Positions 16,619-21,950 of a stretch of 55,181 nucleotides of DNA are shown here, in pieces. The stretch spans positions 1 through 55,181 of IMG/VR virus record IMGVR_UViG_3300045107_000845. One strand, given 5' to 3'. How positions within the stretch are numbered: position 1 is the first letter of the stretch; each line of letters begins with the position of its first letter. Position numbers and translations under genes: made by a program. A model generated the notes under the pieces. It saw only the letters and a program-made list of their open reading frames with translations, was not told the origin of the DNA and ran no database searches. Origin of the DNA: a virus. Its lineage: Duplodnaviria > Caudoviricetes.

Positions 16619-16935
16619 GCCAGAAGCTTCCTGAGCACGAGAAGCGCGCCGGCCGGGTCCTGACGATGAACCTGCGCGACTTTGTAGGCGACACCTTCGA
16701 CGGTGACCCGATCGTCGCGCTCGGGGGCAGCGACTGCGCTGTACGGTACCAGCAGCACCGTTTCGACGCTCGTAACGCCCTGCCCGTCGTCACCGAGCGC
16801 CTGGTATTCGTAGCTGGAATCGAAGGCTGCCCGAATCGTCACAGGGGCAGCGTTGCCACGTCGGTAAAGCACATCGCCGCCGAATTCCTCGACGATATCC
16901 TCGAACACTTCGCGCTGAATCTGCGGCCAGCTCAT
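16615..16935 (-). CDS. Head-tail joining protein (lambda gpFII-like)
   Basis: 106 aa beta-rich, FG..V.Y...DRVTVEGVAYKV pattern, synteny. Confidence 0.75.
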   Translation of the reverse strand: MSWPQIQREVFEDIVEEFGGDVLYRRGNAAPVTIRAAFDSSYEYQALGDDGQGVTSVETVLLVPYSAVAAPERDDRVTVEGVAYKVAQVHRQDPAGALLVLRKLLA

Positions 16936-17687
16936 GCTGCAAGCGGGTGTCTACGGGTGACGATGAGATCGTCGCCCTGAGTTAGCTGGATCCCCAGATT
17001 GCTGAAGTTCAGATTGGCGTGCTGGCGACGACGTATTGGCGGATGGTACCCGACAGGATTGGGCAAATTGCCGGGCGAAATCATGCGCGTGCCTGAGCGC
17101 CGCTCTGTAATGTTCTGCCCGACACTTTCGTCAAACGGAAGCTGGAACATAAGGCGACCCGGAGCAATTTGCTCCGGAAGAACATTGCCCCGAAACAGTA
17201 GCGCGACGTCCGCGTCAGTGAGGCCGTACTGCATCCAGCCGAAGCACTCCGCGAGGAAGCCGTTCCAACTGTTCACGTTTGAAGAATGGCCGACCTGAAT
17301 CAGATTTCCGATGCCGGCGATTGCTCCAATGTTCGTGGACGTATCGTCGACTCGCGAGCCATTGACCCAGAAGCTTCGGCTCGTAGCCGATCTAATTACG
17401 CCGGCGAAATGCACCCACTGGCCAGCTGCGAGCGCCGTCGTCGAGGTTAGCGTCGCCGTCGTCGAGTTTCCGTTGTGCCTAAAGCGCCATGCAGCGGCTG
17501 TCGAATCGTAGTCGATCGTCATCGAACCGGTGTTGCCGGTGACGACAAGCGCAGAAGCGGTGCCGCTAGGTAGCGTTTCCGCCCAGGCCCAACATTGCAT
17601 CGAGAACGGATAGGCGCTGCTCGTCGGAATAGCGCCAGACGGAGTGGAGCATCGTTCAGTGTTCGACCTGACGAAGCGGTACGCCAT
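16932..17687 (-). CDS. LamG/concanavalin A-like lectin-domain protein
   Basis: FSMQCW, GQWVHFAGV, FWVNG, WNGFLAE pattern of LamG-like jelly rolls. Confidence 0.8.
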   Translation of the reverse strand: MAYRFVRSNTERCSTPSGAIPTSSAYPFSMQCWAWAETLPSGTASALVVTGNTGSMTIDYDSTAAAWRFRHNGNSTTATLTSTTALAAGQWVHFAGVIRSATSRSFWVNGSRVDDTSTNIGAIAGIGNLIQVGHSSNVNSWNGFLAECFGWMQYGLTDADVALLFRGNVLPEQIAPGRLMFQLPFDESVGQNITERRSGTRMISPGNLPNPVGYHPPIRRRQHANLNFSNLGIQLTQGDDLIVTRRHPLAA

Positions 17688-18043
17688 TAGACGCTCGTCA
17701 ATTCCTGGAAGAAGGCCTCGACCGTTACAGCTTGGCCGGTGTTTCCGGTGAAGACGGAACGGATGTACATCGTGCCCGGCGGGATATCGATCGAGTGAGA
17801 AACCACTTCGCTGTTCGCCACTCCGCCAGCCCGACCGTTGTAGCGGTACCAGTTCGTGTTGTCGTGGCTGACCTCGATAAACCCGGAGCAGGCGACGCTT
17901 GGTCCAGTCGCACCGTTCGTAAACTTCAGCGTCGCGACGCCGCCAAGCGAAGTGCGAATGTCGACCGAAGAAGAAGTGGTGGTCGCGCCAGCGGCGTTCG
18001 AGGTCGAACTCTGCAGCGTGCGGGCGGTTTTCGTAATCGGCAT
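17687..18043 (-). CDS. Small Ser/Thr-rich beta-sandwich protein (putative virion component)
   Basis: IEVSHDNTNW and MYIR pattern; GGAG RBS; translationally coupled to the LamG gene. Confidence 0.7.
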   Translation of the reverse strand: MPITKTARTLQSSTSNAAGATTTSSSVDIRTSLGGVATLKFTNGATGPSVACSGFIEVSHDNTNWYRYNGRAGGVANSEVVSHSIDIPPGTMYIRSVFTGNTGQAVTVEAFFQELTSV

Positions 18044-18103
18044 GGTGGTCTCCTATGGGCCGGCAGCACTGCGCCGGAGAAAGTTGATCCGCTGTCTACG
18101 ACC

Positions 18104-20809: not shown

Positions 20810-20812
20810 TGA

Positions 20813-21541
20813 TCACCACTCCAAGAGGATCGTCCCCGAAATCTCGGCAGTCAGAGCGCCGGTCGAAATCTCAATCCGGTCGCCGAGCGCAAGAGTTACG
20901 GGTGTCGAATCGATGATGTCGGTGGGCGTTGTCGTCACCGCCGCAGCGTTGATCTCGGTCGAAGTCGTGTCGTTGCCTGCGCGCCGGGCCGCCGTGATCG
21001 TGGTTGCATCGCCCTTGGTTTCGACCTGACCGAGGCCCTTGAACTTCTTTCCCACGTCGGCCGCCCCGGCGACAAAAACCGTGCGCGAGGTCAGCACAGT
21101 CGTCGTGGAGAACGTGGCGGCAACGAATACGGTGCCGGTCATCCGCTGCTGAAGGTAAGCGGGCGTCCGGTTGATGCCGTTGCCGCTGCTGTCGAACATG
21201 ACGATTTCGTCGGCCGAACCGTTGAGCACGTCGTTGTCTGAAATGTCGGCGGAAGAGTGCGTATGCCCGACGTTCGACTTCAGGCTGAGCGCGGTAGCAA
21301 CGGAATCGAAGTTGCTGTCGACCGAAGTTTGATCGGCCTTCGCGGCGAGCGCGGAGACGAGGCCTGTGATGCGCGCTTGCGCCAGCGTCAGATTCGACTC
21401 CAGCCAGATCTTGACGACGGAGAGCACGCCACGCCGCTTCGCGCCGCTCAAGGCCGCAGGGAAGGTGACGTCGGTGCCGTCGCCAAGCTCGCCGCTGTTG
21501 ATGGCCGGCACATCGCCAGCCGACCACGCTTTCTCAGCCAT
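20813..21541 (-). CDS. Putative fibre/stalk protein
   Basis: ITGLVSALAAKA and GHTHSSADISD motifs typical of trimeric phage fibres. Confidence 0.65.
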   Translation of the reverse strand: MAEKAWSAGDVPAINSGELGDGTDVTFPAALSGAKRRGVLSVVKIWLESNLTLAQARITGLVSALAAKADQTSVDSNFDSVATALSLKSNVGHTHSSADISDNDVLNGSADEIVMFDSSGNGINRTPAYLQQRMTGTVFVAATFSTTTVLTSRTVFVAGAADVGKKFKGLGQVETKGDATTITAARRAGNDTTSTEINAAAVTTTPTDIIDSTPVTLALGDRIEISTGALTAEISGTILLEW

Positions 21542-21696
21542 CAGCTACCCCATCCAACCACATCGCCATCCGGCCAGAGCAGGATATCGCCGTCCGGCCA
21601 GGCGACGGCGTCGGTATAGATCGCGCCGCCAAGCGGCGGCGGTGTTGCGCCGCCGGCGCGACCGGTAACGAACAGCGAGAAGAAGAAGCCGATCAT
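21541..21696 (-). CDS. 51-aa adaptor-like peptide with tandem WPDGD
   Basis: TGATG overlaps with both neighbours; MIGFFFSLFVTGRAGG...WPDGDILLWPDGDVVGWGS. Confidence 0.7.
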   Translation of the reverse strand: MIGFFFSLFVTGRAGGATPPPLGGAIYTDAVAWPDGDILLWPDGDVVGWGS

Positions 21697-21950
21697 CACC
21701 AGATCCCGTGCAGGTTGTTTGCGGTGACCGTCGTGCCGGTCACATAGACGCGCCGCGCAATCGCGGGCACGGGCCCGATCACGACGTTGATCGTGACCGG
21801 CGTGTCGCTGTTCGCGGGCAGGAACCGGATCGCGCCCGCGGCGCTCGCCCACATGCTGCGCACGGGGCCATCGGGAATGTCGGCGCTATCGTTGGGCGTG
21901 ATCACCGCCCATTTCGAGCCGGGCGAAGACAGATCATCGGGAAACATCAA
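21696..21950 (-). CDS. Head-spike base protein (RcGTA Rcc01079/GhsA-like)
   Basis: 84 aa; SP...ITPNDSAD...RSMW...G...RRVYVTGTT...HGIW matches the family pattern; AAGGAGG RBS; right after major capsid. Confidence 0.8.
   Translation of the reverse strand: MMFPDDLSSPGSKWAVITPNDSADIPDGPVRSMWASAAGAIRFLPANSDTPVTINVVIGPVPAIARRVYVTGTTVTANNLHGIW

Follow-up and report, generated by a model that had tools for sequence, protein, structure and literature searches.

What do six genes wedged between the major capsid gene and the head-tail attachment gene of a phage build? The question is raised by IMG/VR record IMGVR_UViG_3300045107_000845, a virus record of 55,181 nucleotides (nt) that was analysed over its whole length (hereafter the window). 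The record is that of a temperate, contractile-tailed phage, as a first-pass annotation of the DNA had proposed: lambda-type head genes (gpA terminase, lambda-family portal, S49 protease, gpD decoration protein and gpE major capsid protein) stand beside contractile tail genes (sheath, tube and P2-type baseplate V/W/J/I) and an integrase gene. The DNA stems from metagenomes of hot springs and mats; among the sequencing runs listed for it there are four of DNA, all possibly from the source sample, and none of RNA. Within the late operon, six minus-strand open reading frames (ORFs) separate the capsid gene from a PF05354 head-tail attachment gene, and the co-oriented, mostly coupled set described in that annotation was recovered in full (Table 1). 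In order of transcription (genes 1 to 6) they encode proteins of 84, 51, 242, 901, 118 and 251 amino acids (aa). There is about an even chance that they form a self-contained late-gene module that builds, on the five-fold vertices of the capsid, a spike of the type known from RcGTA, the gene transfer agent of Rhodobacter capsulatus, and from the Cobetia phage Carin-1.

By profile and predicted fold, the 84-aa protein is a true spike base of the Rcc01079 family. It passes the NF048002 model ("spike base protein, RCAP_Rcc01079 family") with 45.4 bits against a cutoff of 28 (E 7.4e-12), and phmmer aligns it with the Rcc01079 chain of PDB entry 6tb9 at E 0.0025. An exhaustive HMMER search with this protein found 164 cluster representatives at E <= 0.001, nearly all of 77-110 aa. 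A family profile made from 81 of the 164, seeded by the window protein, matches Rcc01079 in 6tb9 at E 1.4e-20, covering 77 of 84 residues, and the "Spike Base Protein" of Carin-1 in 8cjz at E 3.5e-11; the latter is gp40, which the Carin-1 genome record names "head spike base protein". Furthermore, the AlphaFold2 (AF2) model made with the family alignment has a predicted local distance difference test score (pLDDT) of 94.1 and matches the fold of Rcc01079, described as a jellyroll. Its only credible Foldseek matches in the PDB are the same two entries, 6tb9_A1 (query template-modelling score, TMq, 0.81; root-mean-square deviation 1.5 Å over 80 columns) and 8cjz_h (TMq 0.74), the next match having E 0.47. 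With the plain sequence, a word-based protein search returned the protein itself only, tblastn against the phage collection gave no match, and a pattern scan of viral contigs confirmed nothing. The label "Rcc01079-like", on which the first-pass annotation had made its proposal depend, is thus sustained. By analogy with RcGTA, the 84-aa protein is presumed to form a pentameric socket on the capsid pentons, and the gpE-type capsid protein is its presumed platform.

The reference for such a spike is the RcGTA pair Rcc01079 (GhsA) and Rcc01080 (GhsB) (PDB 6tb9, 6tba, 6tsu, 6tui). According to the accessible parts of the source papers, the base Rcc01079 sits on capsid protein pentamers (PMC7296036), the base pentamer takes up residues 2-10 of the fibre (IALGLGLGL), arranged as a five-point star, in its five pockets, and the spike makes the first contact with capsular polysaccharide (PMC7296036, PMC10218006). 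In the window, too, a partner gene directly downstream of a base of the same family and fold encodes five alternating hydrophobic residues at positions 2-10. This partner is the 51-aa peptide, whose residues I2, F4, F6, L8 and V10 give a plug score of 5 out of 5. It is the sole such ORF beside the base gene; four plug-like starts elsewhere in the window were judged to belong to unrelated ORFs, as starts inside them or as their hydrophobic N-termini. After the plug come a Gly/Pro linker and, at the C-terminus, a segment that contains two WPDGD motifs and tryptophans at positions 33, 41 and 49, in the pattern WPDGD-ILL-WPDGD-VVG-W. Reading genes 1 and 2 as a putative head-spike socket and its plug thus has good comparative support, and by base and plug the module is of the RcGTA/Carin-1 kind. 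It departs from that kind in one respect: plug and glycan-binding body are not united in one polypeptide, because the plug-bearing product is only 51 aa long and has no lectin domain in a Pfam scan. Lectin-like domains are encoded by separate genes, and no plug motif was found in genes 3-6.

Comparison with the known systems places this departure more precisely. In RcGTA, plug and lectin-like body share one 325-aa chain, whereas in the window the plug is a separate protein accompanied by four further genes. The RcGTA locus lies outside the structural gene cluster, according to the accessible part of PMC5026251, whereas the window module lies inside a head operon, in a contractile-tailed phage with a gpE/gpD capsid. 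Carin-1 resembles the window in that its spike genes lie between the capsid/cement genes and a connector gene and that gp39, directly downstream of gp40, starts MLGLGLGIA. However, Carin-1 is a podovirus, and its plug is fused to a 384-aa protein without a Pfam match; a LamG domain considered for gp39 was dropped for the same lack of a match. Rhodobacter phage RcapNL likewise has an 85-aa base homologue (RcapNL_00029) with an overlapping partner gene (RcapNL_00030) whose product starts MGLGLGIGLGL, but this pair lies at the end of a siphovirus tail/lysis region and the partner is a single 144-aa protein. As regards micro-ORFs, the Carin-1 record has a 29-aa ORF beside the base gene, and RcapNL has no such peptide annotated. 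A split plug peptide is not described in the accessible parts of the head-spike literature covered here (PMC5026251, PMC7296036, PMC10218006, PMC13317679, PMC13730344 and a 2026 TspA preprint), a scope that excludes the Carin-1 structure paper. Relative to RcGTA and Carin-1, the apparent novelties would be a micro-protein adaptor, a tail-fibre-type stalk, a large cargo protein and the setting in a myovirus gpE/gpD head operon.

To see how common such partners are, genes downstream of Rcc01079 homologues were surveyed, as the first-pass annotation had suggested, in the best 80 of at least 528 confirmed family loci among 600 viral-contig pattern matches. Two loci dropped out, one because its base gene ran off the contig and one for lack of a downstream ORF, and the other 78 collapsed into 54 clusters. 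The ORF directly after the base scored 4-5 out of 5 on the plug measure in 16 of the 54 clusters, compared with 101 of 1185 in the background (Fisher p 1.4e-5). Picking of downstream ORFs was crude, overlapping short ORFs being chosen in some loci (e.g. L009 and L038), so 16 of 54 is best read as a rough lower bound, and the true share of plugs is probably higher. The survey therefore bears out an enrichment of plugs, with the qualification that partners are varied and the window is one variant among many. The partners range from 45 to 956 aa, and a Pfam scan of ten plug-bearing ones found Laminin_G_3 in two, DUF285-type repeats in two and nothing in six. Upstream of the base, by comparison, at most seven of the ORFs directly adjoining other family members (n = 50) belong to head-tail adaptor families and four to portal families. 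The idea that the base gene always follows a capsid gene was rejected, as this tally shows no fixed neighbour.

Some of the surveyed partners bear directly on the 51-aa peptide. In L019 and L039/L040, a 45-46-aa partner consists of a plug, an Ala-rich linker and three Trp-Asp (W-D) repeats, with tryptophans at positions 29, 35 and 41 plus one at 22, and is followed by a fibre-like gene. These peptides and the 51-aa peptide have the same layout and unrelated sequences. In L018 and L059, the plug and W-D-repeat segment instead forms the N-terminus of a 306-307-aa repeat protein, and a fibre-like gene starting MGTFNDGDSGSS or MGTFIDGESGSS follows the segment in both its free and its fused form. 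The alternation looks like gene fission or fusion of an adaptor. The earlier claim that the single RcGTA fibre is replaced here by a chain of proteins was thus too strong: split plugs and multi-gene cargo are also seen next to other members of the family.

The closest view of the module's own history comes from one relative. The only homologue found for the 242-aa protein, P0156 (309 aa, 37% identity in BLASTP), led to the viral contig L085, which encodes in order a portal, an S49 protease, gpD, a capsid protein (56% identical to that of the window), a base (87 aa, 40%), a peptide (52 aa, 54%), the 309-aa fibre and a fourth gene, cut off by the contig end after 474 codons. The first four genes of the module are therefore, as judged from the sequences, kept in order. 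The L085 peptide has the plug IALGLTIGL, close to that of RcGTA, and the same WPDGD repeats. Between the two peptides, 18 of 25 C-terminal residues are identical, compared with 2 of 12 in the plug, which nevertheless keeps its alternating hydrophobics. In the fibre, 22 of the 27 residues at positions 44-70 are identical, and peptide and fibre genes overlap by one base in both genomes. Plug and base thus both vary, while the peptide C-terminus and the N-terminal part of the fibre are both conserved, as would be expected from contacts between base and plug and between peptide and fibre. Viral-contig scans with query A5 and with the L085 fourth gene found the L085 contig again. Nothing was confirmed in a viral-contig scan with the capsid protein, and nothing was found in genome_contigs scans with the capsid protein and query A4 or in metagenome_contigs scans with A4 and A5; tblastn of five cargo proteins against L001-L081 gave no match.

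The position of the module is also informative. The nearest capsid proteins of isolated phages are 42-48% identical to that of the window, and in three of three such isolates (Burkholderia phage vB_HM795, Wolbachia phage WO and cyanophage Cy-LDV1) the capsid gene is directly followed by the PF05354 gene; vB_HM795 and WO continue with gpZ-like and baseplate genes, as does the window. On this gene order, the six-gene module is an insertion into a conserved backbone. In Cy-LDV1 (L082), the phage with the closest isolate capsid protein, two "tail fiber" genes (125 and 803 aa, no Pfam match) lie between the head-tail attachment and tail-terminator genes at 7912-10697, a further site for accessory genes in that part of the genome.

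How would a 51-aa plug-bearing peptide be connected to the rest of the module? The 242-aa protein has a conserved stretch at residues 44-70, a variable middle with an H-x-H motif and a conserved C-terminal domain; tblastn of this protein against the phage collection gave no match. Its earlier description as "fibre-like" depends on a PF12789 PTR signal that stays below the cutoff in the window protein (22.4 bits, cutoff 27) but passes it in the L085 homologue (30.9). Of the larger assembly that the first-pass annotation had proposed to model, three fibre chains were folded with the peptide, each chain with a two-row alignment, alongside three controls. The median interface score (ipSAE, interaction prediction score from aligned errors) was 0.52 (runs 0.43, 0.77 and 0.52), compared with 0.00 for the best control; the runs had 79% or more of their contacts in common, with a pLDDT of at least 56 for the peptide and 88-89 for the fibre trimer. 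In the tool's calibration set, 58 of 80 solved complexes scored at or above the mark, as did 2 of 110 mismatches, with scores of 0.60 or less in 7 of those 80 complexes and in both passing mismatches, figures that apply only roughly here, as the two-row alignments and the set-up of three plus one chains differ from the calibration. The predicted complex lends weak support to binding of the 51-aa peptide to the fibre trimer.

The peptide is presumed to be an adaptor between base and fibre, and its layout suggests a single chain that bridges a five-fold socket and a three-fold fibre. Tentatively, and with the balance still somewhat against it, the peptide may be a one-chain symmetry adaptor whose plug fills the five pockets and whose three Trp-centred repeats grip a trimeric stalk of the tail-fibre type. 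The mismatch itself has precedents: in adenovirus, with its penton base, and at PRD1-type vertices, a trimeric fibre stands on a pentameric vertex protein, and the fibre's own N-terminal tails bind the base. The arrangement proposed for the window would differ from these in using for this purpose a micro-protein of its own, a single chain that combines a five-fold plug with three Trp repeats. In such an assembly, five base subunits would form a socket on each penton, one 51-aa chain would fill its five hydrophobic pockets through I2, F4, F6, L8 and V10, as Rcc01080 does with residues 2-10, and the triple-Trp/WPDGD C-terminus would hold the conserved N-terminal part of the 242-aa fibre trimer, so that a single chain would bridge five-fold and three-fold symmetry.

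A simpler spike is conceivable, in which genes 1 and 2 suffice: the base pentamer would be capped by a 51-residue mini-fibre whose Trp/Asp repeats bind sugar or calcium, and genes 3-6 would encode unrelated receptor-binding or neck/tail-fibre proteins that share the slot. Family partners can indeed be tiny (45-46 and 81-86 aa at other loci), genes 3-6 have no plug, the connector region of Cy-LDV1 holds "tail fiber" genes and the 242-aa fibre shows a tail-fibre-type PTR repeat. Against this stand the co-conservation of the peptide and fibre genes with their one-base overlap in both the window and L085, where identity peaks in the peptide C-terminus and the N-terminal part of the fibre, and the fact that unrelated tiny plug peptides likewise precede fibre-like genes. 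The phage has, moreover, its own fibre set after baseplate gene I, with candidates of 729, 255, 441 and 153 aa. We consider this alternative unlikely, if still a serious competitor to the multi-protein spike.

In the multi-protein spike, the 901-aa product of gene 4 would be cargo. It matches the L085 fourth protein at 25% identity over residues 1-217 (E 4e-6, BLASTP), with the first ~16 residues near-identical and little likeness beyond residue 217. For a large, exchangeable protein docked on a conserved virion partner it is usual that the N-terminus is conserved and the rest diverges, and from this pattern we infer that the 901-aa protein is a docked, exchangeable virion component. It would dock on the fibre by its conserved N-terminus and carry the working domain, possibly one that binds or cleaves surface polysaccharide. 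From co-conservation, gene coupling and the weak fold score, genes 3 and 4 are probably attached to the spike. L085 is the only relative found: a word-based search returned the protein itself, tblastn against the phage collection gave no match and a viral-contig pattern scan confirmed none. The earlier proposal of a glycan-degrading enzyme finds no support here: the sole family signal is a sub-threshold match to PF19501 (PcRGLX N-terminal RIFT-barrel; 17.0 bits for the whole protein and 19.9 for its N-terminal half, cutoff 22.1), no structure was matched, Pfam shows nothing for the C-terminal 465 aa even at E 10, and the AF2 single-sequence fold is unusable (pLDDT 30.7). A carbohydrate-active enzyme on a phage capsid has a precedent in phi24B gp84, described in the accessible part of a preprint as a capsid-decorating NanS-type esterase that sits as a hexamer on hexon centres via DUF1737 (bioRxiv 10.64898/2026.04.10.717836). 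However, gp84 has no relation to the Rcc01079 socket, and no enzyme family is matched significantly by the 901-aa protein.

The last two proteins are small. The 251-aa protein matches PF13385 Laminin_G_3 over residues 13-148 (49 bits, cutoff 27.6, E 9.6e-13), in agreement with its earlier "LamG" label, and by this domain probably binds carbohydrate. The 118-aa protein is one of a family of small proteins often seen in viral sequences. Its Atlas model has a pLDDT of 0.88, its nearest Atlas clusters are unnamed and mostly viral, and F5/8-type-C models match with a TM score of 0.62; its PF00754 score is below the cutoff (18.1 bits, cutoff 28.2), and DUF6385, XepA and Bbp16 are further, weak leads from the Atlas. 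In the phage collection, tblastn found no match for the 251-aa protein and one partial match for the 118-aa protein, in a 595-kb unannotated record. A contig scan with the 118-aa protein found only a 13-residue motif match in L088, where a 183-aa protein (7626-8177) shares the motif EVSHDNTNWYR amid small beta-rich ORFs and adjoins a 402-aa ORF with a GDS-type motif, possibly SGNH-esterase-like. The two proteins might act as lectins of the appendage, decorate the capsid or assist in assembly. In the proposed spike, these beta-sandwich proteins would serve as glycan-binding accessories or aid its assembly, and the whole appendage would, independently of the baseplate fibres, make a reversible first contact with polysaccharide of a host capsule or of a mat.

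The genes themselves are laid out as a unit. Successive gaps along the six genes are -1, -1, +3, +60 and -1 nt, with -4 nt to the attachment gene and 70 nt from the capsid gene to the first spike gene, and TGATG overlaps join the 51-aa gene to both neighbours. The base gene has an alternative ATG one codon inside its TTG start (giving 83 aa), with AAGGAGGG upstream. G+C at third codon positions is 0.67-0.86 across all six genes, like that of neighbouring genes. No promoter-like site was found inside the six-gene region, and terminator-like sites there are at chance level (5 seen, 4.7 expected), so the six genes are read with the late structural genes. The hairpin in the spacer (21951-22025 folded, minus strand) has a free energy of -35.1 kcal/mol (z -2.06) and no U-tract; its effect may be to reduce read-through into the spike genes or to stabilise it.

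Table 1. The six-gene module with its flanking genes in the window, and plug and W-D-repeat segments at surveyed loci
Feature	Position	Strand	Basis or remark
Lambda gpE-type major capsid protein, 338 aa	22021-23037	-	PF03864, 2.4e-96; boundary
Spacer, 70 nt, G+C-rich hairpin then AAGGAGGG ribosome site of base gene	21951-22020	-	Sequence read
Spike base, 84 aa (TTG start)	21696-21950	-	NF048002, family profile, AF2/Foldseek
Micro-protein, 51 aa, N-terminal plug	21541-21696	-	Translation, plug score
Fibre-type protein, 242 aa	20813-21541	-	Homologue P0156/L085, PTR signal
Candidate cargo protein, 901 aa (GTG start)	18104-20809	-	N-terminus common to L085 fourth gene
Small beta protein, 118 aa	17687-18043	-	Atlas model
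LamG (concanavalin-A-like) protein, 251 aa	16932-17687	-	PF13385
Head-tail attachment (lambda FII-type) protein, 106 aa	16615-16935	-	PF05354, 7.4e-16; boundary
Plug and W-D-repeat segment, L018	10228-11148		Fused
Plug and W-D-repeat segment, L059	192-1115		Fused
Plug and W-D-repeat segment, L019	1215-1355		Free
Plug and W-D-repeat segment, L039	10225-10362		Free

Several observations weigh against a six-gene spike. The placing of the products in the virion is a prediction from the genes, and the comparison within its own lineage depends on a single relative whose contig ends inside the fourth gene. The residues between the plug positions of the 51-aa peptide are G, F, S and F, whereas those of the RcGTA, RcapNL, Carin-1 and L085 plugs are mostly Gly. 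The complex score is graded weak by the tool and, without a strong prior, such a score is more often wrong than right. Moreover, the 901-aa protein has no significant match in NCBIfam, PHROG, PDB sequences (E 10) or the Atlas, and for the 118-aa and 251-aa proteins neither a plug nor a link to the fibre or the rest of the spike was detected; their earlier assignment to the same appendage finds no support here. The distal half (genes 4-6, 16932-20809) has a G+C content of 0.59-0.60, compared with 0.63-0.66 in genes 1-3 and 0.61-0.69 in the flanking structural genes, and may have been acquired separately. Finally, the "tail fiber" annotations in the head-tail connector region of Cy-LDV1 indicate that the slot also hosts annotated tail fibres.

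Two further alternatives would move all or part of the appendage elsewhere. The whole of it, or genes 3-6, might be whisker-like fibres at the neck or collar, with the Rcc01079-like protein serving there and not at the pentons. The module does adjoin the head-tail attachment gene, and neck-gene neighbourhoods are common upstream of family members, as the counts given above show; however, both PDB matches of the base are capsid entries, 6tb9 (the RcGTA capsid, in which the accessible text of PMC7296036 places the base on pentamers) and 8cjz (the Carin1 mature capsid), and the plug design suits a five-fold socket, whereas the neck has 12- or 6-fold symmetry, which makes this placement improbable. 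Just as improbable is a moron outside the particle, for example a secreted or lysis-released set of polysaccharide-modifying or -binding proteins from the 901-, 118- and 251-aa genes that aids the lysogen or release, for although these genes have a lower G+C content than their neighbours, a 60-nt gap before the 118-aa gene and no relatives in any collection searched for this comparison, they are read with the late structural genes, given the lack of a promoter-like site and the chance-level terminators, and the 901-aa N-terminus is kept with the L085 protein while the remainder diverges.

A few other features of the window were recorded. After the attachment gene, a 194-aa gene (16034-16618, minus strand) matches a "tail terminator" in PHROG and nothing in Pfam, while relatives have Minor_tail_Z there; the relatives also carry one extra gene of ~160-175 aa before baseplate V that is absent from the window. 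ARAGORN calls a 97-nt tRNA-Gly(TCC) at 5701-5797 (plus strand), between the minus-strand tape-measure and tube genes, which is doubtful given its unusual length and location. At 43935-53075, four or more ORFs fall in DNA methyltransferase families by their matches, one of them with a fused ParB-like domain; for a phage of 55 kb this is an unusually large number of methylases.

Rcc01079-type spikes are represented by two PDB capsid entries, those of RcGTA and Carin-1, and in RcGTA the socket holds a single fibre chain. If the six-gene spike is real, the same socket also carries multi-protein appendages via a tiny adaptor, and this would account for the exchange of trimeric fibres and of large cargo domains onto capsids. 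If the one-chain adaptor in particular is real, any trimeric fibre with its cargo would be mountable on a capsid vertex, and the 45-46-aa peptides of the same layout and unrelated sequence would represent a recurrent, perhaps convergent, solution. Genes of 45-52 codons may be skipped by annotation pipelines, and such micro-proteins would then be widely missed virion genes. For the phage itself, contractile-tailed and temperate, the spike would provide a second layer, borne on the head, at which host or matrix is recognised.

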